Shown here: positions 2,698-19,899 of the stretch, piece after piece
Numbering within the stretch: the stretch's first letter is position 1
Layout: each line of letters begins with the position of its first letter
Source of the DNA: Promethearchaeota archaeon
GTDB taxonomy: Archaea; Asgardarchaeota; Lokiarchaeia; Sigyniarchaeales; SOKP01
Direction of reading: 5' to 3'
Assembly (NCBI GenBank): GCA_016839765.1
Contig: JAEOTP010000053.1
Coordinates: 1 to 19,899 of the forward strand
DNA length: 19,899 nt
Program-made: the position numbers and the translations under genes
Notes under the pieces: generated by a model
Databases searched by the model: none
What the model was told of the DNA's origin: nothing
Seen by the model: only the letters and a program-made list of their open reading frames with translations

Positions 2698-3492
2698 TCA
2701 TAGCCCTAAGGGACCATTTTTGTAAATTTCAAATGCCTCATCTACCGAAGCTTTTTCATGGACAATTGCTCTTACAGCTTTAATCATGCCTAATGGACTA
2801 TTAGATTGAAAAATATTTCTTCCCATGTCCACTCCTACTGCCCCCTTATCAACTGCATTTTTAGCCATCTGAAGAGCATCTCGTTCTTCAATTTTTTTAC
2901 CACCAGCTATAACAATTGGTGCTGGGCAGATACTTGTGACCTCTTCAAAATTTTCGCAATAATAAGTCTTCACGAAGGTTGCACCCATTTCTGCTGCCAT
3001 TCTACTTGCCATTCCTAGATATCGTGCATCCCTAACCATTTCACGTCCAACTGCAGTGACAGCTAAGGTAGGAATTCCATATTCTTGCCCCCAGTTTACT
3101 AACTTCGATAAATTCATTAAAGATTGTTTCTCATACTCTCCCCCCACAAAGATTGAGCAAGTAATTGCTGAAACATTTAATCTTATCGCGTCATCAATAG
3201 CTACGTTAATTTCTTCATTAGAAAGTTCCTTAAGCATACTAGCACCAGCTGAAACTCTTAATACAACTGGAACGTCTATTTCTGAGGGTACACAATTTCT
3301 TAACATACCTCTAGTTAACATAAGGGCATCAGCGTACTCAAATAATGGCTTCATATCAGTAAAGCATTTTAATTGACCTGGAATATTCCCAAAATATCCA
3401 TGATCTATTGCCAGCATAACACATCGTCCGGATTTAGGCTTAATAATCCTATTAAAGCGGTTTTGAAAGCCCCAATCGCCTACTAAAACCAT
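2698..3492 (-). CDS. lsrF: LsrF-family 3-hydroxy-5-phosphonooxypentane-2,4-dione thiolase / class I aldolase
   Basis: LsrF-type N-terminus DWGFQNRFNRII..SGRCVMLAIDHGYF, Schiff-base Lys in FVKTYY, IVIAGGKK, GVDMGRNIFQS. Confidence 0.88.
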   Translation of the reverse strand: MVLVGDWGFQNRFNRIIKPKSGRCVMLAIDHGYFGNIPGQLKCFTDMKPLFEYADALMLTRGMLRNCVPSEIDVPVVLRVSAGASMLKELSNEEINVAIDDAIRLNVSAITCSIFVGGEYEKQSLMNLSKLVNWGQEYGIPTLAVTAVGREMVRDARYLGMASRMAAEMGATFVKTYYCENFEEVTSICPAPIVIAGGKKIEERDALQMAKNAVDKGAVGVDMGRNIFQSNSPLGMIKAVRAIVHEKASVDEAFEIYKNGPLGL

Positions 3493-3515
3493 TTTAAATC
3501 ACTTTTTATTCTTTT

Positions 3516-3563
3516 GATTGCATTTTTGAATTATTTTGATAAATAAATTAACGATTGCATTTT
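3516..3563. repeat. 11-bp direct repeat GATTGCATTTT x2 upstream of lsrF, candidate regulator sites
   Basis: Exact copies at 3516-3526 and 3553-3563, between a TATA-like element (3592-3586) and the lsrF start. Confidence 0.45.
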
Positions 3564-3673
3564 ATTTTTTCTATACAAAGTTCAGTATTAAAAAAGATTA
3601 ATTAATATTTTAAACAAGACATAAAATTCTTCCTCTATATTTATTAAATATATTAATTGCATAGTAAAACAGC

Positions 3674-4510
3674 TTAAAGAAGATTTAAAAATTCTTCCAC
3701 TTTACTTTTTATTTTTGCTGCTAATTTAGGAGAATATCTTTGTTTTATAAAATCCTTAATTAAGCTTATTCGATAATAGTTAGGTTTAGGAATCATTAGT
3801 TCTCGTGCTATTCGGTCTACTAGATCCTCGTCATATATTTCTTTTACCTTTTCTAAAACCCTTTTAACATATTCAGCTTCTCTTACCAATTTCGAAATAC
3901 TTTGTTGAATTAGATTCACTTGTTCTTCTTCATCAAAAATATCTAGCGCTTTTCTGATCATTTCTTCTTCAAATTTTAACTTTTCCTCCCATGGTGTTTG
4001 TAAGATATTTTGATGAGTATCCATAAGGAAAGCATTCTTGTCATTTAACTTTATTTTATTATAATCAGTTTCATCAAAAAAACTAACATTAGAGGTACCC
4101 CGATAGGCTTCTGGGAGTAATTTCTCACCAATTTTATTAATAACATACGAAAAATCTTCAGATTCCTTATCTCTTATAATATATATAGGATAATTAAATA
4201 TTTTAGCATGAATCAAGCAAAATACTCCATATAAACCATACAAGTTTATGAAGTGTTTCATACTAAATTTCTTTCTTTTATCTTCCCTTTCGGCAACTGT
4301 TTTCATTAACAAATCAATTCGGTCATAACCTCTGACAATACCCTTGGTATCAACAAATACAATGAATTGATGTTCTTTACACACTCCACCTTGAGGAACT
4401 TGTATTTTAATCGTTCCAAATTTTTTCTGAGAAAAAATTCTCATAGGAACTTTAATTACTTTAACTAAGGAACATGTTGGACATGTAACTTCAATTTCTT
4501 TGTAGCTCAT
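3674..4510 (-). CDS. Hypothetical protein with N-terminal CxxC...CxxH zinc-binding domain (Lokiarchaeia-type family)
   Basis: 278-aa ORF with CPTC (C10, C13) and CKEH (C44, H47), followed by FIVFVDTKGIVRGY and a helical charged C-terminus. Confidence 0.8.
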   Translation of the reverse strand: MSYKEIEVTCPTCSLVKVIKVPMRIFSQKKFGTIKIQVPQGGVCKEHQFIVFVDTKGIVRGYDRIDLLMKTVAEREDKRKKFSMKHFINLYGLYGVFCLIHAKIFNYPIYIIRDKESEDFSYVINKIGEKLLPEAYRGTSNVSFFDETDYNKIKLNDKNAFLMDTHQNILQTPWEEKLKFEEEMIRKALDIFDEEEQVNLIQQSISKLVREAEYVKRVLEKVKEIYDEDLVDRIARELMIPKPNYYRISLIKDFIKQRYSPKLAAKIKSKVEEFLNLL

Positions 4511-4599
4511 CTTGTAATTATCTTATTTAAATCTTTAATACTAAATATTAATGCTTAAAACCTAAATTAATCTTTTGACTATTTAATATTCTTTTTAAA

Positions 4600-5325
4600 T
4601 TAAAAATTAGTTCTTATCAATAATTCTTCAAATTTTTCTTTCCAATCTGAATAATCATCTACATAATTATACCCACAAACCTTACTGAGAGCCTTATTTT
4701 CAATTATTTCTTTAATTTTATAAGCTCCATAAATAGTTCTTTTATTTGAACCGTAAGGATTAAGACGCATTCTTTCTTTAATAAGGAATACATAATCACA
4801 TATAAATAACACATCCTCAAATATATAAAATGTAAATCCTTGTGTATGTCCATTAATATGAAACGCTTCTATTCCATCTAATTCAAAATTTTCTAAAAAT
4901 AATTTATCAAAAGAGTGATTTTGAGCAAGTATATTTTGAGTATCATATTGATGGATCCAAATAAATGCAGTATAGTAGCTTCTATAGAGATTTGAAGCAC
5001 CTAGAAAATGGTGATGGGTAAATAATATTTTTTCCATTCTGTCTAGACTAGATTGAAAAGTAGAAGGACAATCAATCCAAATTTTCTGATTATCAGAAAT
5101 TATACAATATGCAAGATGCTCTAAACCCAATTTTGGTGAACTTTCTAAACTAAAAACTCTATTTGTAACTTTTTCCTTTTTAATACTATATTTTTTTGAA
5201 CAAAATTCAGCTGTTATAAATTTTTCCCTTGACGATCCACAGAAAGGGCAATTATCAGGAAGATAACCAATCATATTATAACCACATATTTCACAAACAA
5301 ATTGCTCCAATCTAAAAATATTCAT
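4600..5325 (-). CDS. Rubredoxin-like domain fused to a degenerate MBL-fold domain
   Basis: CEICGY...PDNCPFCG rubredoxin/zinc ribbon, then WIDCP, LFTHHHFLGA, GHTQG and LFICD in MBL motif order. Confidence 0.8.
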   Translation of the reverse strand: MNIFRLEQFVCEICGYNMIGYLPDNCPFCGSSREKFITAEFCSKKYSIKKEKVTNRVFSLESSPKLGLEHLAYCIISDNQKIWIDCPSTFQSSLDRMEKILFTHHHFLGASNLYRSYYTAFIWIHQYDTQNILAQNHSFDKLFLENFELDGIEAFHINGHTQGFTFYIFEDVLFICDYVFLIKERMRLNPYGSNKRTIYGAYKIKEIIENKALSKVCGYNYVDDYSDWKEKFEELLIRTNF

Positions 5326-5422
5326 GGAAATCTTGCTCTTTTTTTAATATTTAATTTTATATTTATTGAGATTTAATATTTTTTTGATATATTTATTTTT
5401 TTTAATGAAGATAGGTAATTTT

Positions 5423-6706
5423 ATGAAAATAGAGGCCTCAAAAGAAGATTCTGATTATATGTATAATTTTGTAAAAAAGATCATAAATGAATGTGGTCCT
5501 AGGATGCCTTGTAGCCCAGCAGAAGCTAAAGCTGCTGAAATAATAAAAAGAGAAATGGAAAAAATATGTGATACTGTTTCTTTGGAGCATTTTACATGCC
5601 ATCCTAAAGCATTCCTTGGGTGGATAAGATTAATTATGATTTGTATTCTGTCATCAATTGGACTTTATCTTATTATGCAATTACTTTCAAATCCTTTTTG
5701 GTTGGCGTTTATATCCATTATATCTTTCCTTTTAGTCTTTCTTTCAATAGTAATAATGTGGGAGGAATTTTTTAACTATCGAGAGTTTATTGACCCCTTA
5801 TTTCGCAAGAAATCGTCTCAAAATGTAATCGGAAAAATAATAAATGGAGAGCCAAAAAATATTATCATTTTTTCAGCTCATATAGACTCCGCAATCCAAT
5901 TTACTCTATTAAAGCTACTAAAATGGGGTTTTCTAGTTTTAGCTTTTGGAGGGATTTTGTTAATTCTAATTTGGTTGATTATTGCATTTTTAAATCTTAT
6001 GTTCATGGTGATTGGATTCATTACGCTTAAGTCAATCTTCTTCAATACTTCAATATGGCTACTAATAATCGGGAGTCCCTCTATTATTGGGTTGTTTTTC
6101 TTCGTACCTTCTGGAGAAAAAGGTAATGTAGTACCTGGTGCTGTCGATAATTTAAGTAGTTGCTCTGTTCTTATTGGGCTTGGGCGTTATCTCAAAAATA
6201 ATAAAGGTATTATTCCCAATAATACAGAAATTAGATTAATAGCATTTGGTTGCGAAGAGGCTGGTTTAAGAGGAGCATATCGGTATGTATCTTCGCATTT
6301 AGATGAATTAATCGATTACAATGCTATGGTTGTAAATATGGATGGATTAGAGACCCCTGATGGATTCCATGTTATCGATTATGAACCAACTACTAGAACA
6401 AAACATTCAGAAGAGATGGTACTAAAACTATTAAACGCAGCAAACCTCGTTGGAATAGAAGCAAAAAGATTAGGTTCTGGAAAATTAGAAAAAACTTTGG
6501 GTAGACTATCCGGTGGTTCTGATGCTGCAGCATTTTCAAAGGCAAATATAAAAGCAGGATTTATAAATTCAGCTGATTGGAAGACTAGATCGAGTTATTA
6601 TCATCAAGACACTGATACACCTGATAAAATTAAAAAAGGTACATTAGAAAATGCATTATGTATATGTATTGGATTTTTAATCAATGAATCAAAAAAAGTA
6701 GTATAA
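5423..6706 (+). CDS. Membrane-embedded M28 family zinc peptidase
   Basis: SAHIDS, GAVDNLS, GCEEAGLRGA, VNMDG, GSDAAAF, YYHQDTD plus several hydrophobic segments. ATG 5423 is preceded by AGGT. Alternative starts are ATG 5405 and TTG 5366. Confidence 0.9.
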   Translation: MKIEASKEDSDYMYNFVKKIINECGPRMPCSPAEAKAAEIIKREMEKICDTVSLEHFTCHPKAFLGWIRLIMICILSSIGLYLIMQLLSNPFWLAFISIISFLLVFLSIVIMWEEFFNYREFIDPLFRKKSSQNVIGKIINGEPKNIIIFSAHIDSAIQFTLLKLLKWGFLVLAFGGILLILIWLIIAFLNLMFMVIGFITLKSIFFNTSIWLLIIGSPSIIGLFFFVPSGEKGNVVPGAVDNLSSCSVLIGLGRYLKNNKGIIPNNTEIRLIAFGCEEAGLRGAYRYVSSHLDELIDYNAMVVNMDGLETPDGFHVIDYEPTTRTKHSEEMVLKLLNAANLVGIEAKRLGSGKLEKTLGRLSGGSDAAAFSKANIKAGFINSADWKTRSSYYHQDTDTPDKIKKGTLENALCICIGFLINESKKVV

Positions 6707-6735: not shown

Positions 6736-9327
6736 TTATGGTTTTCTATTTCTTACTATTAACTTTGTAAACAACAGAATTAATATCATAGGTACTAAGC
6801 CTACTCCATATACGAGAAATAAATAGTAATTCACTGCATTTGAAAATAATGAATTTGCGAATAGCTGTCCAAATGAATTGAATAAGTAATGTAATATAAT
6901 ACATGGTAAGAGGCTTTCAGTTTTAACATAAGCATAAGCTAGTGCGACTCCAAAGCAACTCGCATAAAATACTTGAAATATTACATAATCTAGAGGAAAA
7001 CCACTTAATAGGTTGACAAAATGAAAAAGACCAAATAAAAATCCATTTACTATAACGGATGTCAGCTTTGAATATTTTTTAAGCTGTAAGTTTAGAATTA
7101 CACCTCTGAAAGCTACTTCTTCTAAAATTCCCGGTTGAAGCATTATATAAAATAAAGCCCAACCTAGGTTATATATTGTAGGATAACCAAATAGAACATT
7201 AGGATCAAAAATGTAAGTTCCCAATAGGTTAGCAAAACCCCACGTAGAGAGAGCGTATAATAGGAAGGACAATATCCCTAGTAAAATATTTCTTGCTACT
7301 GGTTTGCTTCTTGTAAATCCAATGGAATAAGCATATTCTTTAAAAATAGCTTTACCATGTGGTAGTTTTAGGCCATATGGAGTAATTACAAAAAGAAGTA
7401 CCGATAATAGACTGAAATTGATAATTAAATTTATTAAAAATTGTTGCCATACTGTCATATGCATTAAAATTGGTGATAAAACTAGTACAATTGGTATTGC
7501 TGCATATGGTAAAGCATAAAATAATACCATAATAACAGTAGCTCCAGCATTTACGTTTCTTCTTAATAATCCGCCTGTGTAGTATGTAGCCAACTCTTTT
7601 TCTTTAGGAAACATTCTCGTGAAAGCATAAAGTAATGAACTAAGACCGATTATACTAATAATCACTAACCCAATAATAATCCCTAAGATTCCATATAAAC
7701 TTAACAACGTAAATTCAATGATGATAACAGTAAAATAAATTAACAGTTCTGAGCAAATTAATATTGTCCATTTTAATACCTTCCGTTGTTTGTTTACTTC
7801 TTCAACAACATATTTGTATTTCATTTTTCCAAAAAAACGAATCTTTAGTTCAAATGTAAAGAGAAGAAATATCCATGCAATTGGAATGGTTAGAAGAAAA
7901 AGTGTCAATAATATTAATGACTTTATCATAATCATTAATATGACCCCCATCAGTCCGAGACCGATAGCCTGAATCGTTAGCATCAAATATATTTTTGCCT
8001 TCGCTTGTTTCCGTCCAAGTAATGGTAACGATGCTAAAATAGATGCTCCTGATTCTTCCATATTTAAAAAGCCAGCTACAAGCATAAAGGGTATGAATTG
8101 ATTCACCCCAATTACTATTGACCATAAAATAATTATGCTCTCAAGAGAGATTATTTCCTCAGCAAAAGCAGGCGTCATCATTAGAACTAGGATAACAGGA
8201 TATATAATAGGCATTATTAGAAAAATAAAACTTTGATAATCCCTAGTTGTTGATATTAAATCCTTCCGAATAAATGATTTTTCTGTTGAAATAGTCTTGA
8301 TTTCTACTGTTACTTCTTTTTTGCTAATAAATTTCTTCTTTCGCTTTTTATCAAGCTCAACTTCAGTAGCGGTTACACTTTTAAGTTGCTTTATAGCAAC
8401 TTTATATAATAAGAAAGTTAATCCAATAAATAAAGCAAAACCAACCATTGAAGTAAGAATCAAGTCTGGTGGGATTAGTACTGGATTTGCTATAAAGGTA
8501 ATTAAATAAGTTATTCCAAAAGGGAAAGGAATAAGGCTTAAAATGCGATTTAACAAACTAGCAGATTCATTGGTGGGGAATATTATGAAAAAATCTCCAA
8601 TAAGATTCAATGCCCAGGAAAGGAGGAAAGAAGTTCCAAATGCTAATAAGAAAAAACCTCCCATAGTAATTATTCTTAAAACACTAGCCTTCTTTGAATT
8701 ACCACTAGACTCTGAAAATATTTTAGCCATTTTTTCTGAAAGAATAACGAGAATACTAAATGCAAAAATAGCATTTAATGTGGATGATGCTAAACAAATA
8801 AGAAAAAGCCAAAAATTTTGTGTCATGATTAACAGGATTGTTGGAAATCCTAAAATTAAAGCTATAAGAGCTATATCAAGATTGCGAAAAATGGTTACAT
8901 AACCAAGTTTTTTCAAATCTTTTTTTGAGAGAGGAAGAGTTTGTAGCCATTTAAATGCATTACCGGACATAAATGAGCTTGTACTAAATAATCCCATAAG
9001 AAGAACATAAAGAACTGACATCAGAAAAAATATTCCAAAGACAAAACTATTAGTCAATAATAATGTTTCAATAGGTGAAGATGATGAATAACCTCCAACG
9101 ATTGCTAAATAACCCCATACGGAAAACAAAGGAATAAATACAAAAATAAATCCATAAACAACTTTAAGCGCGATAAGTTGGCGTTTGATAGCTTTCTTAT
9201 TTTTCTTATATCTTTCTAATAACTTTGCCTGATTACCTCCCGCTGAAGCTAATTGGGAATCCATTAATATTTCTAAATTAGGGTATTTTGCTAAAGAATA
9301 AAATTTGTACTTGACCTCTTCCTCCAT
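6736..9327 (-). CDS. ABC transporter permease fused to C-terminal CPBP/Abi (type II CAAX protease-like) intramembrane protease
   Basis: About 580 aa of polytopic ABC-2-like permease (LQTLPLS and LASLPL repeats, IRKDL), then intact CPBP motifs EEVAFRG (7122-7102), FGLFH and HYLFN. ATG 9327 sits 1 nt after the ATPase stop. The ORF track start is GTG 9342. Confidence 0.82.
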   Translation of the reverse strand: MEEEVKYKFYSLAKYPNLEILMDSQLASAGGNQAKLLERYKKNKKAIKRQLIALKVVYGFIFVFIPLFSVWGYLAIVGGYSSSSPIETLLLTNSFVFGIFFLMSVLYVLLMGLFSTSSFMSGNAFKWLQTLPLSKKDLKKLGYVTIFRNLDIALIALILGFPTILLIMTQNFWLFLICLASSTLNAIFAFSILVILSEKMAKIFSESSGNSKKASVLRIITMGGFFLLAFGTSFLLSWALNLIGDFFIIFPTNESASLLNRILSLIPFPFGITYLITFIANPVLIPPDLILTSMVGFALFIGLTFLLYKVAIKQLKSVTATEVELDKKRKKKFISKKEVTVEIKTISTEKSFIRKDLISTTRDYQSFIFLIMPIIYPVILVLMMTPAFAEEIISLESIIILWSIVIGVNQFIPFMLVAGFLNMEESGASILASLPLLGRKQAKAKIYLMLTIQAIGLGLMGVILMIMIKSLILLTLFLLTIPIAWIFLLFTFELKIRFFGKMKYKYVVEEVNKQRKVLKWTILICSELLIYFTVIIIEFTLLSLYGILGIIIGLVIISIIGLSSLLYAFTRMFPKEKELATYYTGGLLRRNVNAGATVIMVLFYALPYAAIPIVLVLSPILMHMTVWQQFLINLIINFSLLSVLLFVITPYGLKLPHGKAIFKEYAYSIGFTRSKPVARNILLGILSFLLYALSTWGFANLLGTYIFDPNVLFGYPTIYNLGWALFYIMLQPGILEEVAFRGVILNLQLKKYSKLTSVIVNGFLFGLFHFVNLLSGFPLDYVIFQVFYASCFGVALAYAYVKTESLLPCIILHYLFNSFGQLFANSLFSNAVNYYLFLVYGVGLVPMILILLFTKLIVRNRKP

Positions 9328-9328
9328 C

Positions 9329-10138
9329 TTAACTCGTTTCACCTTTGAATTTCCTTTTATAAGATGCTCTTAATCTTTTAACAATTTCATCTACAGAGGC
9401 GTCTTGCTCTGTTAACCTGAGAAATACTTCTTCTAAACTTGCTCCTAATTTGTTAGATTGTTGACGTAATTCTTCAATTGTACCTATACCAACTAATTTA
9501 CCTTTATTTATAATACCTATTCTATCACAGAGTTCTTGAGCGATTTCCATTATATGAGTGGAAAAAAGAACCGCACCCCCTTGTTTTGTATGTAAATCAA
9601 GTATCTCTTTGACAACTTTCACAGATTTTGCATCCAATCCCGCAATAGGTTCATCTAATATGAGTAAATCGGGTTCATGAAGGATAGCTGCTATTATTTG
9701 TATTTTTTGCTTATTTCCATGGGATAATGTGGCAATTAATTGTTCATAATATTCATCAGCTTCTAAGCTCTCTAAATAGTCTTTTGCCTTTTCTGAAGTT
9801 TCCTCTCCATCTAATCCTCTAATTGAAGCAATAAAACTGAATAAATCTTTAGGAGTAAGTGATTTAAAAATTAATGGTTCTTCTGAAACATAACCCACTC
9901 GACGTTTAATTTGCACTTCATCTCGTTCAGGATTTAAACCAAAAATACTCATATCTCCTTCTAAAGGTTCTAATAAACCTAATAGTAACTTAATAGTTGT
10001 GGTTTTTCCAGCACCATTGGGTCCTAATAAACCAAAAACTTCACCATTATAGACATTAAAAGAAATATCATTTACTGCTTTAACTTCACCGAAGTATTTT
10101 TTTAAGTTTTCCACTTTTATTATAACATCATTTGACAT
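9329..10138 (-). CDS. ABC transporter ATP-binding protein (ABC-2/exporter type)
   Basis: Walker A GPNGAGKTT, signature LSHGNKQK, Walker B LILDEP, H-loop STH and C-terminal LEEVFLRLT. ATG 10138; alternative GTG 10147. Confidence 0.95.
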   Translation of the reverse strand: MSNDVIIKVENLKKYFGEVKAVNDISFNVYNGEVFGLLGPNGAGKTTTIKLLLGLLEPLEGDMSIFGLNPERDEVQIKRRVGYVSEEPLIFKSLTPKDLFSFIASIRGLDGEETSEKAKDYLESLEADEYYEQLIATLSHGNKQKIQIIAAILHEPDLLILDEPIAGLDAKSVKVVKEILDLHTKQGGAVLFSTHIMEIAQELCDRIGIINKGKLVGIGTIEELRQQSNKLGASLEEVFLRLTEQDASVDEIVKRLRASYKRKFKGETS

Positions 10139-10384: not shown

Positions 10385-11248
10385 TTAATTATCCGAAAAG
10401 ATACTCTTTTTTATTCTTTTTCCCGTTTTGGTTGCAGCAATTCCACCTAATCCTGTTTCCTTCAATTCATATGGGAGTTTTCGACCTACTTTCATCATCG
10501 CATCAATTATTTCATCCGCAGGTATAATTGATGTGAGTCCTGATAGTGCCATTTCAGTTGCTAAAAAAGCATTCACAACTCCAATTGCATTTCGTTTAAT
10601 ACAAGGCGATATAACTAACCCAGCAACTGGATCACAAACAAGTCCTAATAAATTCTTCAAACTTAAGGCAATCGCATTACTAATCTGAGTATGTGACCCT
10701 CCCGCCATATATGTTATAGCTGCAGCAGACATAGCAGATGCAACTCCTACTTCAGCCTGACATCCCCCCTCACTTCCAGAGAGCATAGCACGATTTCCAA
10801 TTATTGCACCAATCGCGGCTGCAACCACTAAAGCATTAAATACATCCTCCTCTGATTTTCCTAGAATATCCTTAGCTTTAAAAAGAACAGCAGGCAAAAC
10901 TCCAGATGAACCTGCTGTAGGAGCTGCAACAATTAATCCCATACCGCTATTATATTCACTAATAATCATTGCCCAAGCGATAGCATCTTTCATATTGTCT
11001 CCAAAAAATATTCCTGGTGTGAGTAGTTTTTTCGCTTGATTGCTTGCTTCCTTAATAGGTAATTCTATATCAGTCTTAAGGGCTTTCTCGAGAGACTGTT
11101 TCATAATTGTTAAAGTCTTTTTTAGACGTTCAATTATATCAGACTCTGAAATATGTGTATATTCACTTTCATCTTTTAATATTAACTTGTGTAAAGGAAT
11201 GCTTTTTGTTTCAGATTCATCAAGTAATTGTGAAATTGATTCAAACAT
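10385..11248 (-). CDS. sdaAA: L-serine dehydratase, iron-sulfur-dependent, alpha subunit
   Basis: AAPTAGSSGVLP, GGCQAEVG, LGLVCDPVAGLV..PCIKRNA (three [4Fe-4S] Cys) and LKETGLGG. Confidence 0.95.
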   Translation of the reverse strand: MFESISQLLDESETKSIPLHKLILKDESEYTHISESDIIERLKKTLTIMKQSLEKALKTDIELPIKEASNQAKKLLTPGIFFGDNMKDAIAWAMIISEYNSGMGLIVAAPTAGSSGVLPAVLFKAKDILGKSEEDVFNALVVAAAIGAIIGNRAMLSGSEGGCQAEVGVASAMSAAAITYMAGGSHTQISNAIALSLKNLLGLVCDPVAGLVISPCIKRNAIGVVNAFLATEMALSGLTSIIPADEIIDAMMKVGRKLPYELKETGLGGIAATKTGKRIKKSIFSDN

Positions 11249-11906
11249 TAATAATCCTCACCCATTTTATTTCTGAATATTTTTTTAATGCAGAAATTAC
11301 TTCATCTGGGATAACCGAATCTGCCTCGAGCCAGGTAAGAGCAATCTTCTTTTTTAAATCTCTAGATATTTTCATTGAACCAATATTTAAATTAAATTTT
11401 GAAAGGGTATTTGCAATATTTACTAGTGCTCCGATCTTATCTTGGTTTAAAATTACTAAAGTGTTTGGCTCTCCCCCAAATCCTGCATCTAATCCATTTA
11501 CATTTTTGATTATAATATTGCCCCCTCCTATTGAAGAACCTATAACAGTCATTTTTTCTATTTTGTCACTCATTTCAATACTAACAGAATTAGGATGATA
11601 TTCAGATCCTAAATCTACAATTTCAAAAGTATAATTAAGACCTTCTTCTTGAGCAATTTCAAAAGCATTTTTTATTTCCTCATCCTCAGGTTTAAATCCT
11701 AGTAATCCTGCTAGTATTGCAATATCGGTTCCATGACCACGATATGTCTCAGCAAATGAACCATGAAGGCCTATCTTTACACTTTTAGGCTTTTTTCCGA
11801 ATAGCAGTTGAGCAACATATGCAATTTGACACGCTCCTGCTGTATGGCTCGAGCTTGGACCTACCATTATATGTCCTATTACATCAAATATTGAAGTATA
11901 TTTCAC
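11241..11906 (-). CDS. sdaAB: L-serine dehydratase, iron-sulfur-dependent, beta subunit (C-terminal ACT domain)
   Basis: MKYTSIFDVIG.IMVGPSSSHTAGA, GSFAETYRGHGTD, HPN, SIGGG and an ACT-like C-terminus. GTG start, 8-nt overlap with sdaAA. Confidence 0.95.
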   Translation of the reverse strand: MKYTSIFDVIGHIMVGPSSSHTAGACQIAYVAQLLFGKKPKSVKIGLHGSFAETYRGHGTDIAILAGLLGFKPEDEEIKNAFEIAQEEGLNYTFEIVDLGSEYHPNSVSIEMSDKIEKMTVIGSSIGGGNIIIKNVNGLDAGFGGEPNTLVILNQDKIGALVNIANTLSKFNLNIGSMKISRDLKKKIALTWLEADSVIPDEVISALKKYSEIKWVRIINV

Positions 11907-11953: not shown

Positions 11954-12904
11954 TTAGTTTCTTTTTAATCTCATAATTAGAATTATTGATATTATAATTA
12001 TTATTGTGCCAATAATATGAAAAATGGTAAAATCTACGTCAAGGATAAATGTAGCAAATATTGCTGTAACAATTGGAGTCGGTGAAAGCAATATTGTAGC
12101 TTTTGAAACATCCAAATATGAAAGAGTTTTGTACCAACAGAATAATCCCAGGCTATAAACTGCCCCCATTGCAAAAAAATAGAAATTATTAATCGGATCT
12201 AAGAAAACACTTAAATTTTGTAAAGGGAAAAATATAAAATAAGTTGAAAATAAGATGGAACCACTAAGAATATTTCTTATAAATACCATTTGCGTAGGTG
12301 TCGCTTCATTTCTAGAAAAGATTGGTTTTGTTATAGTATGACCTAACATCCATAAACACGCCACAAGCAATAATGTTAAAACCCCTAAAATAATATCACC
12401 GTTGATATTTTCTAAATTAAAAGGAAATTGGGTGATGGCAATTACTAAACCGAAAAAAAGGATAATAGAAAATAAAATCTGGATTTTAGTTATTTTCTCT
12501 TTTAGTATTAAATATCCAAAAATCAATCCAAAAAACACAGTTGTTTTTTGGGTTAATGCTCCATTTATCTCCTCTGCTAATTTATAGCCAATAAAAAATA
12601 AAAGCTGGTTAAAACCAAATAGTAATCCTATAAATAGAAAAACTTTTAAATTTTTCTTCCATTTTTTTAGAATAGAATCATGATTATTAATTGTTAGGTT
12701 ATTTTTCCTTGCTTTTAAACGATTAAGTTTGACTTCTATTAACATTAATGGGATAAATATCACTGCTTCTATTAAACATGTCATCGCAGCAAATATGTAG
12801 GCATCAATAGACTCTGGCCGTGAATTTGCTACTATCGGTTGAAGACCTACAAAGATGTTACCCAAAATTCCAAAAATAAGTCCTTTTTTTATATTATTGC
12901 TCAA
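11954..12904 (-). CDS. DMT/EamA family transporter (paralog 3 of 3)
   Basis: About 10 hydrophobic segments in two EamA repeats (ILKEKIT, WYKTLSYLDVSKA..PI). TTG start. Confidence 0.9.
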   Translation of the reverse strand: MSNNIKKGLIFGILGNIFVGLQPIVANSRPESIDAYIFAAMTCLIEAVIFIPLMLIEVKLNRLKARKNNLTINNHDSILKKWKKNLKVFLFIGLLFGFNQLLFFIGYKLAEEINGALTQKTTVFFGLIFGYLILKEKITKIQILFSIILFFGLVIAITQFPFNLENINGDIILGVLTLLLVACLWMLGHTITKPIFSRNEATPTQMVFIRNILSGSILFSTYFIFFPLQNLSVFLDPINNFYFFAMGAVYSLGLFCWYKTLSYLDVSKATILLSPTPIVTAIFATFILDVDFTIFHIIGTIIIIISIILIMRLKRN

Positions 12905-12966
12905 GATATTTACCTAAGTTCATTAAATATTAAAAATGTTTAGAAGTTAAAATTTAATGAAATATA

Positions 12967-13908
12967 TCATTTCCCTTTTACCTTCACTATAACTAAAATT
13001 GAAATTATGATAATCATCGTTCCAAATAGATGGAAAATTGTAAATTTTTCACCTAAAAATAAAGTAGCAAGTAATGCTGTAATAATCGGTGAAGGGGAGA
13101 TAATTATTGTTGCAGTTGAGACATCTATATAAGATATCGCTTTATACCAGAAAAATAAATCAAACCCATAAGCAAAACCCATAATAATGAAATAAAATTG
13201 AGATATTGGATCAAAAATTAGCCATATATTTTGAATAGGGAAAAAAATGAAATAGGTTGAGCCTAAAACAATTGAATTTAACAAATTTCTTATAAAAACT
13301 AATTGAATTGAAGTGAGCTCTTTTCTTTCTAAAATTGGTTTTGTAAATGTATGAGCAAGCATCCATATTGCAGCTGTCAAGAGCATTATTAAAACACCAA
13401 TATTGAATTCAAGAATATTAAAATTTCCTTTAGTAACAGTTAAAGTTAATCCAAATAATAAGATAATAGAGAAAATAATTTGCGTGAGAGATATTTTTTC
13501 ATGATTAATTAAAAAACCAAATAATAAGCCAAAAATAATAGTTGTTTTTTGTGCTAACGAAGCATTTATCGCTTCAGAAAGTTGATATGCTAAATATAAT
13601 AATATTTGAGCAATAGCAAAATTAATTCCGATATATATCAAAAAATATTTATTTTTTTTCCATCCATTTTTTAAAATATTTATTTCATCTAGTTTTGATG
13701 GGTCTTGTTTTAAAGTTAAATTAAGACGTTTTCTTTCTAAGAAGAATAATGGTAAAAATATGATGGTTTCATAAAAGACTGTCATAGTAGCAAATAAATA
13801 TGCATCTATTTCAGGTGGGCGTGAGATTACAATAATTGGTTGAATACCAATTAAAATTGCAGAACCTATTCCAAACAAAATACCTTTAATATAATTTAAT
13901 TTGGCCAA
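12967..13908 (-). CDS. DMT/EamA family transporter (paralog 2 of 3)
   Basis: Same motifs as its neighbours (QPII..SRP, HEKIS, WYKAISY, FLGEKFTIFH). TTG start. Confidence 0.9.
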   Translation of the reverse strand: MAKLNYIKGILFGIGSAILIGIQPIIVISRPPEIDAYLFATMTVFYETIIFLPLFFLERKRLNLTLKQDPSKLDEINILKNGWKKNKYFLIYIGINFAIAQILLYLAYQLSEAINASLAQKTTIIFGLLFGFLINHEKISLTQIIFSIILLFGLTLTVTKGNFNILEFNIGVLIMLLTAAIWMLAHTFTKPILERKELTSIQLVFIRNLLNSIVLGSTYFIFFPIQNIWLIFDPISQFYFIIMGFAYGFDLFFWYKAISYIDVSTATIIISPSPIITALLATLFLGEKFTIFHLFGTMIIIISILVIVKVKGK

Positions 13909-13932
13909 GATATTAAAATGAATTAGTACCGA

Positions 13933-13940
13933 TATTTAAA
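13933..13940 (-). promoter_or_regulatory. TATA box candidate for a leaderless EamA paralog 2 transcript
   Basis: TTTAAATA ends 24 nt before TTG 13908. A similar TTTTAATA ends 23 nt before TTG 12904. Confidence 0.4.
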
Positions 13941-13961
13941 CAATTATAGTTTTGGATAAAA

Positions 13962-14912
13962 CTATTTACCCTTTTCTCTGACAATCATTATAATGGAAAT
14001 AATTATAATTATTGTCCCAATCAAATGAAAAATTGTAAAAGTTTTACCAAGAAAGATAACAGAAAAAAATGCAGAAACAATGGGGGTCAAGGAATTAATT
14101 ATCCCTGCCTTTCCAATTTGAATATATGAAATTGTTTTATACCAAAAAAACAAAGAGAATCCATAATCTAAACCCATTAACATGAAAAATATGAAATTAT
14201 CAAAATCTAACAACAATAAGAAATTTTCTTTAGGAAAAATAACTAAATAAACTAGCGTTAAGATAATTCCACTACATAAATTGCGGATAAATCCGACTTG
14301 AGTGGGAAATAATTCATTGCGATCAAAAGCAGATTTTGTGAATGCATGCACCAATGTGAATAATGCCACACTAATTAATAATATGACAACACCTATATTA
14401 AATTCAAGCAAATTAAATGAACCCTCAGTAATTGCAATAACCAAACCAATAACCAATAAAATACAAAATAAGATTTGAATTTTAGAAATCCTTTCCTCCT
14501 TTAAAATTAAATGCCCAAATAAAAGAGCAAATACTATTTCACTCTTCAGGGCTAGAGAACTATTAATTGGTTCTGCTAGGTCATAACCAATGTATAGCAA
14601 AACAGGAATAACGCTAAAAGTTAATGTAATTACAATTAACAGTTTAATATTCTTCTTTTTTTTCCATCCATTTAATAGAGAATTAATTCTGTTCTCTTCT
14701 GATGGATTATTTTTACTACTATTGTTCAATCTTCGAATCTCCACCATAAAGATTGGAAGAAAAATTAAAGCTTCAATTAAGGCAGTAATTGCCGCAAATA
14801 TGTATGGATCTATGATTGAAGGTCTTGAAACTGCTATAACAGGCTGCATTCCTATTAAAAACACAGCAATTAATGCACAAATTATCCCTTTCTTTAAATT
14901 ATAATTTTCCAC
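13962..14912 (-). CDS. DMT/EamA family transporter (paralog 1 of 3)
   Basis: QPVI..SRP, LKEERIS, FIRN, WYKTISY, FTIFHLIGT. GTG start. Confidence 0.9.
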   Translation of the reverse strand: MENYNLKKGIICALIAVFLIGMQPVIAVSRPSIIDPYIFAAITALIEALIFLPIFMVEIRRLNNSSKNNPSEENRINSLLNGWKKKKNIKLLIVITLTFSVIPVLLYIGYDLAEPINSSLALKSEIVFALLFGHLILKEERISKIQILFCILLVIGLVIAITEGSFNLLEFNIGVVILLISVALFTLVHAFTKSAFDRNELFPTQVGFIRNLCSGIILTLVYLVIFPKENFLLLLDFDNFIFFMLMGLDYGFSLFFWYKTISYIQIGKAGIINSLTPIVSAFFSVIFLGKTFTIFHLIGTIIIIISIIMIVREKGK

Positions 14913-17038: not shown

Positions 17039-17061
17039 ATGTGTTTAGTTACTAAAATCAA
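17039..17061. promoter_or_regulatory. Putative MarR operator 2 (imperfect copy, autoregulatory)
   Basis: ATGTGTTTAG-TTA-CTAAAATCAA lies between TATATAA (17031-17037) and ATG 17063. Confidence 0.65.
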
Positions 17062-17062
17062 T

Positions 17063-17518
17063 ATGGTTCAAGATAAGGTACTTGTAGAGAAGATTCTTGA
17101 AATTCTAAATAAAGTTGCATTTTTGGATAGGAGAAGAATTATTATATATGATGACATCAAACTCTATCCTTCAGAGATTCATCTATTATTATTCTTACAT
17201 TATGTCCAAGATAAAAATATAACAAATATTGCTCATAAGATGGGTTTAACAAAGGGAGCCATCTCTCAGACTCTCTCTCGACTTTATAATAAAGGAATTA
17301 TTAAAAAAGAGACTGATCCACATAAAAAGAATGAATTACATGCTCATTTTACAACTAAAGGTCAGAAGCTAGCGAAACATATAATTGAAGTGAAAAATTC
17401 AATTGAATCTAAATACTTAACATATATAAAAACGCTTTCAGAAAGGGATAAAAAAACAATATCGGATTTCCTTGATAAGATGGTTTCAATATTGCACAAT
17501 AAACATCAATTAAGTTGA
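17063..17518 (+). CDS. MarR family transcriptional regulator
   Basis: LYPSEIHLL, NITNIAHKMGLTKGAISQTLSRLYNKGII winged HTH and FTTKG. ATG 17063 is preferred to 17039 because the TATA box and operator 2 occupy 17031-17061. Confidence 0.92.
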   Translation: MVQDKVLVEKILEILNKVAFLDRRRIIIYDDIKLYPSEIHLLLFLHYVQDKNITNIAHKMGLTKGAISQTLSRLYNKGIIKKETDPHKKNELHAHFTTKGQKLAKHIIEVKNSIESKYLTYIKTLSERDKKTISDFLDKMVSILHNKHQLS

Positions 17519-17618: not shown

Positions 17619-19436
17619 TTATTTCACATATTTTCCAAATTGAGGAAATTTCCTCAATTGAGTAGCATTAAAGACAGGCCCTTCTTTACATACAGTAACA
17701 TCATTATTTTCACCAATACAACAAGAACCGCATAAACCGACCCCACATTTCATTTTCCTTTCCAAACTAGCCTGTATCTCTATTTTATGAGCTTCAGCAA
17801 TTTCTAAGACACGTTTCATCATAACTTCCGGTCCACATGTTATTATAAGGTCTATTTTTTCTTTCTTTATAAGATCTTCAACCGTGTCTGTCACTAAGCA
17901 CTTTTTTCCAAAAGATCCATCCTCTGTAGCACACATTGTATTTGGAATTAGTTCAATTAATCTTTCAGAAAAGAGCAACGAAGCTTCATCTTTCGCGCCT
18001 ATAGAAACAAAAAAATTTTTCTTATTTTTCTTAAGTGGCTCGATCAAAGATGTTAAAGCAGCTATACCCATTCCCCCACCAACTACTAAGATATTATTTG
18101 TATCTTCATAGTTAAAAGTATTACCATATGGTCCTCGAATTCCTATTAAATCTCCCGTTTGTAGTTCAAATAATTTAGTGGTACCTTCGCCAATCTTTTG
18201 GACAGTAATTTCGAGCATATTTCCTTCAACACTTGAGATAGACATTGGAAAAAAGTCAACATTAGGAATCCAAAGTATTACAAACATTCCTGGACGATAA
18301 GCCTTGGCAATTCTTTGATTTCTAACAATAAAACTCTTAATATCTTGAGAATGTTCAACAATGGAATCAATTTCTACGATCTCTACCTTGTTCCTTGTAA
18401 TATCTAACACTAATTCTTCCTCATCTTTTCCAAGTGGTTTTATCTCGATGAATCCTTGATCTAAGGCTAAATCAAAAACTTCTTTGCCCCGTTTTGTTCT
18501 AATTATAAATGTGTCCCACCCTTGTTCACTACCAACCCTCCCCACTGAGATATCAGCAAACGATGCGGTATAGTCAGAACATGTAAAACAAGCGTTTCTA
18601 ATGGCTTTTTCATATAGATAATTAAATGCAATTTCTTTTGTTGTTGAGTTTGTTTTAACTTGCATTTTAAAGTTATGTTGATGAGAATCAATCATTTCAA
18701 TCTGGTTTAGTTTAATGTCTAATTCCATATATAACTCACTCAATTCTTGATTATGAAATGTGCCGAAACAAAAAGTACCAACTGCTAAAGAAACTAAATC
18801 ATACGCTTCATAATCAAAAATAGAATGGTTTTGTAGCTTTCTTAAAGCTTGAATTTGGCAAGGAGTTCCAACTACAGCAATATCAGTAAACCCTTTATTA
18901 ATAGCTTCTCCTAAAAGCGATATCGTTGGACTTTGACTTGGTTTATAGCCAGCACCTCTGAATAAATCTTGTTTATTTTTAGCAATCATAGGAAATGGTC
19001 TGAAATTTTCATCTTTATCAGTAATAATAGAAGCGTCAATCAAACTATTTTGCATTGCAACCCATAATAAACCAGTTAAAGGCCCAGCACGACTAGGAAT
19101 AACTTCTCTGGCCTTATCTGTTAATCTTACCGAATAAATATCAATGTAGTGCCCCAAAATTTTGTCATGCTTTTTTCCAAAAACCCATTTATCCAATAAA
19201 GATAATGAAATTCTGTCAATTTCTGTTTTAGGGCATAAGTTATAACATAATCCAAAACCATCTCTACAAGTATTTGCATCTTTACACGAACCATCTTCTA
19301 TAGGTATTTCCTTCTCTCTATTAAATTTAATATTCGCACAAAAAGCAGCACAAGCTCCACAATATACACATTTGTTTGTTTTTATAATCTCATTTTCTAA
19401 TTCAGTCCAACCCTTTTTAACTTTTCCAATAAACAC
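17619..19436 (-). CDS. Fusion: 2x[4Fe-4S] + FrhB/FpoF-like domain + PyrK/HydG-like FAD/NAD(P)/[2Fe-2S] electron transfer domain
   Basis: Residues 1-350 carry CVYCGACAAFC, GLCYNLCP, VVGTPCQIQALRK, GTFCFG and CFTCSDYTASFADISVG. Residues 351-605 carry RPGMFV, GPYGN, VGGGMGIA, TCGPEVMM and MKCGVGLCGSC..VCKEGPVF. Single uninterrupted frame, GTG start. Confidence 0.88.
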   Translation of the reverse strand: MFIGKVKKGWTELENEIIKTNKCVYCGACAAFCANIKFNREKEIPIEDGSCKDANTCRDGFGLCYNLCPKTEIDRISLSLLDKWVFGKKHDKILGHYIDIYSVRLTDKAREVIPSRAGPLTGLLWVAMQNSLIDASIITDKDENFRPFPMIAKNKQDLFRGAGYKPSQSPTISLLGEAINKGFTDIAVVGTPCQIQALRKLQNHSIFDYEAYDLVSLAVGTFCFGTFHNQELSELYMELDIKLNQIEMIDSHQHNFKMQVKTNSTTKEIAFNYLYEKAIRNACFTCSDYTASFADISVGRVGSEQGWDTFIIRTKRGKEVFDLALDQGFIEIKPLGKDEEELVLDITRNKVEIVEIDSIVEHSQDIKSFIVRNQRIAKAYRPGMFVILWIPNVDFFPMSISSVEGNMLEITVQKIGEGTTKLFELQTGDLIGIRGPYGNTFNYEDTNNILVVGGGMGIAALTSLIEPLKKNKKNFFVSIGAKDEASLLFSERLIELIPNTMCATEDGSFGKKCLVTDTVEDLIKKEKIDLIITCGPEVMMKRVLEIAEAHKIEIQASLERKMKCGVGLCGSCCIGENNDVTVCKEGPVFNATQLRKFPQFGKYVK

Positions 19437-19437
19437 G

Positions 19438-19899
19438 TTAATTATTTCCCTCCTTTAATCGTTTAAGAAACTCTATACCCTCTTGTTTGCCCAATTCAAA
19501 TGATTCTAAGTTTTTATCTAATGTAGAACTTGGTACGAATTTTTTGATAGTTTCAAGGGCAGATTCTTCAGAAAAAATACCAGAAAGAATCGTAAAGACA
19601 CCTAATAAAATTGAATTTCCATATACAATATTTCCAAATTTCTCAACAGCCATTTTCTGAATCGGTATACCCAAAGATTTGTCAACCTTCTTAGCTGCTC
19701 TAACTTTTTGAATGGTAGAATTATCCCAGATTAAATAGCCTGTATTGGGTTCTTTCTTTATCATATTTGGTTTAACATCTGCAGCTGCTTCTTCAGAAAG
19801 AATAATTAAAAAATCATAAGGCTCTAGTGCTTTTGGATAATCAATAATTTTCACAGTTTTATCTAAATCAATAACGACTTCAGCCCAGCACTTTCCTCC
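19438..19899 (-). CDS. 2-oxoacid:ferredoxin oxidoreductase gamma subunit (5' end outside window)
   Basis: The frame stays open to the window edge (GGKCWAEVVIDLDKTVKIIDYP...). It carries the POR/KOR gamma-type motifs NSILLG and KNLESFELG. Confidence 0.85.
   Translation of the reverse strand, partial: GGKCWAEVVIDLDKTVKIIDYPKALEPYDFLIILSEEAAADVKPNMIKKEPNTGYLIWDNSTIQKVRAAKKVDKSLGIPIQKMAVEKFGNIVYGNSILLGVFTILSGIFSEESALETIKKFVPSSTLDKNLESFELGKQEGIEFLKRLKEGNN

Follow-up and report, generated by a model that had tools for sequence, protein, structure and literature searches.

A FrhB-PyrK fusion flavoprotein in the operon of a 2-oxoacid:ferredoxin oxidoreductase of a Loki-type Asgard archaeon: a candidate fifth, electron-output subunit

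Introduction

Subunits that combine a two-cluster ferredoxin domain with a FrhB-type flavin domain have been described as bound reductases of other enzymes. According to Lemaire et al. (2024, PMC11493965), chain B of PDB entry 8RIU is the zeta subunit that wires CO dehydrogenase directly to F420 in Ethanoperedens thermophilum; the two-cluster ferredoxin domain at its N-terminus anchors it and connects the last cluster of the enzyme to FAD. Chain E of 8RJA is a bound F420-reductase subunit of Fwd that docks by the corresponding domain. The present study concerns a relative of these subunits, a 605-aa fusion of a FrhB-type half and a PyrK-type half, encoded directly behind the genes of a 2-oxoacid:ferredoxin oxidoreductase (OFOR) in a Loki-type Asgard archaeon (Promethearchaeota archaeon, assembly GCA_016839765.1; 3.32 Mb in 96 contigs, 30% GC). 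The window, that is, the whole stretch of DNA analysed, is one entire contig of 19,899 nucleotides (JAEOTP010000053.1, C31 in what follows), and public relatives of the proteins of this genome are labelled Promethearchaeota or Lokiarchaeota in database matches.

OFOR-type enzymes with a built-in NAD(P) output are pyruvate:NADP+ oxidoreductase (PNO) of Euglena and Cryptosporidium, and the five-subunit, NADH-dependent phenylglyoxylate dehydrogenase PadEFGHI. Their likeness to the system presented here is a functional analogy only, in which an OFOR core passes electrons through a flavoprotein module to NAD(P)+ without free ferredoxin. PNO is cited in PMC13768988. A plug-in reductase subunit of FrhB type is known on other enzymes; in the present case it would serve an OFOR, and it is fused to PyrK. 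In the literature searched, no paper pairing FrhB with PyrK was found, and the Asgard, OFOR and F420 literature held no description of the fusion protein.

Results

Architecture and cofactor ligands of the fusion protein

The fusion gene, the features directly upstream of it and the domains of its product are placed in the window as follows.

17619..19436, minus strand: gene of the FrhB-PyrK fusion, 605 aa, with a GTG start at 19436 and a TAA stop at 17619-17621 (open reading frame, Pfam, NCBIfam)
19438..19899, minus strand: OFOR gamma gene, C-terminal 153 residues, cut by the contig end and continued on contig C35, bases 2-265 (Pfam POR, tblastn)
19449..19453, minus strand: GGAGG ribosome-binding-like site, 12 nt before the fusion GTG, within the end of the gamma gene
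19188..19409, minus strand: ferredoxin domain at the N-terminus (about residues 10-83; two [4Fe-4S] motifs), aligned with residues 10-83 of 8RIU_B, by which that subunit is anchored to CO dehydrogenase
18402..19163, minus strand: FrhB-type [4Fe-4S]/flavin domain, about residues 92-345 (PF04422, PF04432), with divergent FAD and F420 motifs
17622..18389, minus strand: PyrK-type FAD/NAD(P) domain with C-terminal [2Fe-2S], residues 350-605 (NF000796; Foldseek 5KSW_B), with the nucleotide loop GGGMGIAAL
17688..17747, minus strand: all-Cys [2Fe-2S] motif C564-x4-C569-x2-C572 ... C583, invariant in relatives

The first-pass annotation, made from the sequence alone, had described a single 605-aa chain with this domain layout, beginning 1 nt after the stop codon of OFOR gamma with a GGAGG upstream. 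The open reading frame, Pfam, NCBIfam and the cluster motifs bear out the chain and its layout, and the described start agrees with the sequence, in which the gamma TAA occupies 19438-19440 and is followed, after one base, by the fusion GTG at 19436. Pfam places FrhB_FdhB_N at residues 101-175, FrhB_FdhB_C at 185-335, NAD_binding_1 at 452-543 and DHODB_Fe-S_bind at 559-594; the FpoF models of NCBIfam match residues 16-327, and residues 350-604 match the PyrK equivalog NF000796 with 257.7 bits against a cut-off of 224. The FrhB domain reaches 33 bits with PF04422 and 127 bits with PF04432, and its Foldseek TM to FrhB chains is 0.78-0.82. Among solved structures, the best relative of residues 11-363 is 8RIU chain B (E 1.4e-58; Foldseek TM 0.81, rmsd 2.7 A), followed by 8RJA chain E as the next relative of the N-half. 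The C-half is nearest, by both sequence and fold, to PyrK (5KSW, 1EP1), NfnA and the sulfhydrogenase gamma subunit, with a Foldseek TM of 0.85 to 5KSW_B, and it is about 42% identical to the PyrK encoded elsewhere in the same genome.

Within the ferredoxin domain, the first [4Fe-4S] motif has the standard CxxCxxCxxxC form (C23-x2-C26-x2-C29-x3-C33) and the second set comprises C51, C57, C64 and C68-P, all eight cysteines being invariant in the aligned relatives. The [4Fe-4S] ligands of the FrhB domain (C193, C223, C283 and C286), likewise invariant, correspond to C104, C134, C192 and C195 of FrhB. At the C-terminal [2Fe-2S] motif, the alignment shows Cys as the first ligand in the fusion and in the genome's own PyrK, and Asp in the genome's NfnA, which upholds the earlier assignment of an all-Cys cluster of PyrK type and not of NfnA type. 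The PyrK half is better conserved across relatives than the FrhB half and its nucleotide loop is kept; the NAD(P) end of the fusion is well supported. The AlphaFold2 model (142 sequences) is compact and confident, with a mean pLDDT of 90.6 and a pTM of 0.86.

Operon linkage and distribution

The window and contig C35 overlap exactly, the last 127 bases of the former matching the first 127 of the latter without a difference. On the same strand, C35 carries the beginning of gamma and, after it, beta, alpha and delta (C35:2-2646). Together with 19438-19899 of the window, this stretch holds a four-subunit OFOR in one operon, consisting of delta (2x[4Fe-4S]), alpha (POR_N), beta (thiamine pyrophosphate, TPP) and gamma (POR). 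The gamma gene that had been annotated upstream of the fusion is present in the window, truncated by the contig end, with the rest of the operon on C35. By NCBIfam, the enzyme is of the Oor/Kor kind, with alpha reaching 398.6 bits on NF006412, just under the cut-off of 411, and delta resembling OorD; with alpha below that cut-off, we leave the substrate class unassigned from NCBIfam. At least four further OFOR loci are present in the genome, each without a FrhB-PyrK partner.

The tight coupling of the fusion to an OFOR, proposed by the first-pass annotation, was confirmed by a synteny survey of 80 loci of species-representative genomes and 6 metagenome loci. The order delta-alpha-beta-gamma-fusion was found in every surveyed locus with enough upstream DNA, and gamma and fusion were separated by 1-14 nt in all of them. 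The delta gene was found even in loci where gene callers had missed it; replacement of OFOR delta by the ferredoxin domain of the fusion was considered and rejected, as delta precedes alpha in every locus with enough DNA. The operon order is shared by divergent copies at 35-52% identity, which come from Sigynarchaeum (41%), Lokiarchaeon CR_4 (about 50%), a Bathyarchaeota metagenome-assembled genome (MAG; 35%) and GCA_012798355.1 (42%). The gene context of the nearest stand-alone FrhB relatives at two further loci (L104 and L101) revealed nothing on OFORs.

In a word-based search, the clusters of about 605 aa numbered more than 120, at 68-91% identity and from many assemblies, and hundreds of independent assemblies contain the 605-aa chain. 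When 1.84 billion representatives were searched exhaustively with HMMER, only two full-length clusters emerged at the 50% level (68% and 42% identity), the remaining matches being the FrhB half alone, the PyrK half alone, or PyrK-PyrD fusions. Among 200 genomes sampled evenly across the phylum, a full-length fusion was present in about 27 of the 41 genomes of the host's family and in 0 of 160 others. Five fusion-free genomes of this family (91-100% complete) carry no OFOR alpha above 45% identity, and the fusion-linked alphas are 52-82% identical. Because the operon is conserved and the fusion and its type of OFOR are absent together, the five genes behave as one module, which is gained and lost as a whole.

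FrhB motifs and coenzyme F420

In the cryo-EM structure of FrhB (PMC3591093), the FAD pyrophosphate lies at a helix start (QDGG) with a Lys-Tyr (KY) loop by the flavin, and F420 lies against a small Ser-Val (GSVGS) and the IGKGK turn. According to the alignment, all four of these motifs, tied to FAD or F420 contacts, are altered in the fusion. Throughout the fusion family, QDGG is changed to (x)AGP(L/I)T, with G118 alone invariant, and the KY loop to GYKPSQSP; since both new motifs are conserved family-wide, this region is still constrained, and a flavin or an interface is probably retained in the FrhB domain. At the F420 side, the Ser position of GS(V/I)GS is taken by N, K, E or R (entropy 2.2 bits), the IGKGK turn is variable (1.3-2.6 bits), and the F420-contact positions have the highest entropies in the region (2.2-2.6 bits). 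Four FrhB paralogs of the same genome and the compared solved F420-reactive proteins keep QDGG, the KY loop and GSVGS; 8RJA chain E already departs from the IGKGK turn. Canonical F420 binding by the fusion is, judging from these motifs, doubtful. The first-pass annotation had pointed to an altered GG loop (SRAGPLT) as a caveat for F420; the alteration is real by alignment, yet it extends beyond that single loop to all four motifs.

The same annotation had considered that the genome might lack F420, which was not the case. A profile search found CofD, two CofE and CofG, and a weaker, below-cut-off match of the CofG family directly downstream of CofG is taken as CofH; the organism would probably be able to make F420. 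Two Mer-like genes of the luciferase family lie at C53:10112-12327, and a whole-genome search gave no canonical F420H2:NADP+ oxidoreductase (npdG/Fno) above the cut-off. FrhB modules are widely used in this genome, which holds 11 FrhB_C matches in all.

Comparison with described systems

The fusion shares with zeta (8RIU/8RJA) the ferredoxin domain with 2x[4Fe-4S], the FrhB-type [4Fe-4S]/FAD domain, and a gene located within the operon of an enzyme whose usual products include CO2 and reduced ferredoxin. It differs in its partner, which is an OFOR, in the PyrK FAD/NAD/[2Fe-2S] module that replaces the short dimerisation tail of zeta, and in the change of the FAD and F420 motifs, which zeta keeps. 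Likewise, NfnAB/NfnI, the NADH-dependent ferredoxin:NADP+ oxidoreductase (PDB 4YLF, 5JCA), joins a PyrK-like FAD and [2Fe-2S] unit to a ferredoxin-facing flavin unit with two [4Fe-4S] clusters, whereas in the fusion the second unit is of FrhB type instead of GltD type, the [2Fe-2S] is all-Cys instead of Asp-ligated, and both units reside on a single chain. Group I Fsr, the F420-dependent sulfite reductase (PDB 7NP8, 7NPA), is the third-ranked fold match and likewise unites ferredoxin, FrhB and C-terminal catalytic redox domains in one chain, of about 620 aa, but its C-terminal domain is a sirohaem sulfite reductase, its canonical F420 site is kept, and the N-half alone superposes. With PyrK (PDB 1EP1-3, 5KSW), the C-half has in common the fold, the all-Cys [2Fe-2S], the nucleotide loop and a score that passes the PyrK equivalog cut-off; unlike PyrK, the fusion is not beside pyrD, is joined to FrhB, and is without the C-terminal tail of stand-alone archaeal PyrK. 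The flavoprotein modules of PNO and PadEFGHI contain no FrhB and are either unrelated or of another build, with a CPR-type FMN/FAD domain in the case of PNO.

The true NfnA of the genome (NF004862, 360 bits; Asp as first ligand) is encoded on contig C33, beside a gene of NfnB type. In this locus (L108, C33:5500-16500), a methylene-tetrahydromethanopterin-dehydrogenase-like gene (1007-2002) is followed by NfnA (295 aa, 2090-2977) and by the gene of a 928-aa protein (2979-5765), in which ferredoxin and FrhB parts with canonical F420 motifs are joined to a flavoprotein of NfnB/GltD type. NfnA and this 928-aa fusion make a candidate F420-linked Nfn complex, and a stand-alone FrhB gene is also found in the locus (8145-9302, minus strand). 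In a Hydrothermarchaeales MAG (L101:5601-10680), a FrhB-like gene is followed directly by the genes of an AprA-like flavoprotein and of an ATP-sulfurylase-TusA fusion, an arrangement that may represent an F420-linked module for the reduction of adenosine phosphosulfate (APS).

Neighbouring genes and inserts in the gamma gene

Further genes of the window that bear on the operon and its surroundings are the following.

17039..17518, plus strand: MarR-family regulator gene, convergent, marking the operon end
11241-11906, minus strand: L-serine dehydratase beta (Pfam SDH_beta)
10385-11248, minus strand: L-serine dehydratase alpha (Pfam SDH_alpha); alpha and beta together span 10385..11906

The fusion gene is followed on its 3' side by a T-rich spacer and then by the convergent MarR gene, and inspection of the downstream genes in the window revealed no pyrD or hydrogenase gene, in agreement with the operon end given by the first-pass annotation. 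Upstream of the operon, on C35, there are LutA/LutB-like genes, a UxaA-like dehydratase, RidA and a D-serine-dehydratase-like gene. The products of these enzymes and of the L-serine dehydratase in the window are pyruvate or 2-oxobutyrate. Because of the neighbouring serine dehydratase, D-serine-dehydratase/RidA and LutAB-like genes, pyruvate or 2-oxobutyrate is the likely substrate of the OFOR, to which this context points weakly. Three tandem paralogs of EamA-family transporters (316, 313 and 316 aa) occupy 11954-14912 on the minus strand, downstream of the operon. The operon of distant relatives (loci L016 and L018) likewise has an EamA gene behind it, together with genes for an ABC ATPase and a 12TM/Rce1-like membrane protein.

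In relatives, the OFOR gamma gene is interrupted by inserts of 29-31 nt with stop codons and a small hairpin. The inserts recur at three sites, inside the codons of GYGG|QG, after EAYS and after AAAR, and their approximate positions are listed by locus.

L018:9385-9412 and 9501-9522
L027:5498-5528
L028:806-836
L041:3227-3256
L068:5417-5446
L086:1800-1830 and 1925-1955

They look like tRNA-type mini-introns, and in simple folds only one of the three stood out from shuffles. The end of C31 falls within 1-2 nt of such an insert site (after GCTAGA), and the assembly break between C31 and C35 may reflect strains with and without the insert; the gamma gene of this genome itself reads through insert-free.

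Discussion

The architecture, the cofactor ligands, the strict operon linkage and the joint gain and loss of the 605-aa protein would best be explained if it were a dedicated fifth, electron-output subunit of the delta-alpha-beta-gamma OFOR of Oor/Kor type, an explanation in which we place about even confidence. In such an enzyme, a 2-oxoacid, likely pyruvate or 2-oxobutyrate, would be decarboxylated at TPP, and the electrons would exit via the [4Fe-4S] clusters of beta and delta to enter the N-terminal two-cluster ferredoxin domain of the fusion, which would stand in for free ferredoxin as zeta does on the F420-reducing CO dehydrogenase. From there, their path could lead across the FrhB-type [4Fe-4S]/flavin domain and, by way of the [2Fe-2S] cluster, on to the FAD of PyrK, which would reduce NAD(P)+, the net reaction being 2-oxoacid + CoA + NAD(P)+ -> acyl-CoA + CO2 + NAD(P)H. 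NAD(P) is somewhat more likely than not to be an electron acceptor; that the FrhB flavin would in addition give electrons to F420, or take them from it, is put forward tentatively, as the less probable case. Direct wiring to the OFOR seems at least as likely as the reoxidation of free ferredoxin, because the nearest solved relatives (8RIU, 8RJA) are bound subunits wired to their enzyme.

Several points weigh against a fifth subunit of this kind. The OFOR keeps its own delta in all surveyed loci; therefore, the ordinary ferredoxin exit remains, and free ferredoxin could still link the two proteins. To connect Fe-S clusters with NAD(P), a single flavin would be enough; the conservation of the FrhB domain therefore hints at another substrate or at bifurcation, for which a fifth subunit of this kind gives no explanation. 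Furthermore, passing electrons of -500 mV straight to NAD(P) would waste energy in an organism for which a syntrophic life based on hydrogen or formate has been proposed (PMC7015854).

Alternatively, the fusion could be a free-standing ferredoxin:NAD(P)+ and/or ferredoxin:F420 oxidoreductase, co-transcribed with the OFOR and unbound, that reoxidises the soluble ferredoxin reduced by it, as the first-pass annotation had mainly proposed. FpoF-type proteins, which the N-half resembles, are said to react with ferredoxin when free, and the universally kept delta is the normal exit to ferredoxin. We consider this unlikely in view of the tightly bound state of the nearest solved relatives, the spacing of 1-14 nt in every surveyed locus, and the fact that the fusion never occurs apart from this type of OFOR and that both are lost together; an enzyme that oxidises ferredoxin in general would have no reason to depend on one particular OFOR, and at least four other OFOR loci in the genome do without such a partner. 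The two flavins, otherwise hard to explain, would find their place in an Nfn-like three-way enzyme, in which the FrhB flavin would exchange hydride with F420(H2) and branch to the [4Fe-4S]/ferredoxin-OFOR and to the [2Fe-2S]/PyrK FAD-NAD(P) side, in effect a hub that links F420, ferredoxin and NAD(P) by confurcation or bifurcation, or else an F420H2:NAD(P)+ transhydrogenase. Its cofactor set parallels that of NfnAB, F420 biosynthesis genes are present with no canonical Fno/npdG found, and combinations of FrhB with NAD(P) flavoproteins recur, as in the FrhB-NfnB/GltD fusion beside NfnA in this genome. It is made rather improbable by the replacement of QDGG with AGP, of the KY loop with GYKPSQSP, of IGKGK with a variable turn and of GSVGS with N/K/E/R at its Ser position, by the high entropy (2.2-2.6 bits) of the F420-contact positions in the fusion family, and by the retention of QDGG, the KY loop and GSVGS in the four paralogs of the genome and the compared solved F420-reactive relatives. 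Electron bifurcation by the fusion is pure speculation, and only with little confidence can it be proposed that the five-gene module is the first OFOR with a built-in, flavin-based bifurcating or confurcating output, where a remodelled FrhB flavin would sit between the OFOR/ferredoxin chain and PyrK-NAD(P), with F420 or another cofactor as hydride partner. The overall interpretation of the first-pass annotation, an electron hub coupled to the OFOR, is thereby supported in part: the fusion and its coupling to the OFOR stand, and the F420 site and the free-ferredoxin reading are weakened.

It could also be imagined that the electrons run in reverse, the fusion feeding those of NAD(P)H and/or F420H2 into an OFOR that acts as an anabolic 2-oxoacid synthase. 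OFORs are reversible, and PorEF have been proposed to feed electrons to the anabolic pyruvate oxidoreductase of Methanococcus, which provides a precedent for extra operon-encoded Fe-S subunits on such an enzyme; genes of the tetrahydromethanopterin pathway are present on C33. Reductive carboxylation, at about -500 mV, is however out of reach for NAD(P)H alone unless a second acceptor takes electrons downhill, the genes nearby (serine dehydratases, RidA, LutAB-like) generate 2-oxoacids in catabolism, and the patchy occurrence of the module within one family fits poorly to an essential anabolic step, all of which makes this role very unlikely. Finally, the database name and the score above the NF000796 cut-off for the C-half would suggest an electron-transfer subunit of dihydroorotate dehydrogenase B, unless the chain were an assembly chimera. 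Neither is credible to any appreciable degree: the genome has a canonical pyrD-pyrK pair of its own at C52:26522-28307, pyrD lies beside the fusion in 0 of about 60 loci, and the same chain occurs in hundreds of independent assemblies, on which ground the chimera was rejected. Service to a distant PyrD and an assembly artefact, both of which the first-pass annotation had kept in view, likewise give way, the former to the pyrK gene adjacent to the genome's pyrD, the latter to the more than 120 clusters from many assemblies. In this context, the database name 'dihydroorotate dehydrogenase electron transfer subunit' is wrong.

Loki-type Asgard archaea are the closest cultured relatives of the eukaryotic host. 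The oxidation of 2-oxoacids has been proposed as their main energy-yielding step, with the electrons assumed to leave as reduced ferredoxin (PMC7015854). If a fifth subunit such as that favoured here is real, an operon-encoded flavoprotein leading to NAD(P), and perhaps to F420, would alter the electron balance of the current metabolic models. It would also extend the 2024 'plug-in reductase' idea, developed for CO dehydrogenase and formylmethanofuran dehydrogenase, to OFORs, and would constitute an archaeal functional parallel to the eukaryotic pyruvate:NADP+ oxidoreductase. Should the output moreover be bifurcating or confurcating, Loki-type Asgard archaea could set the redox level of the electrons that leave a central catabolic step of 2-oxoacids.

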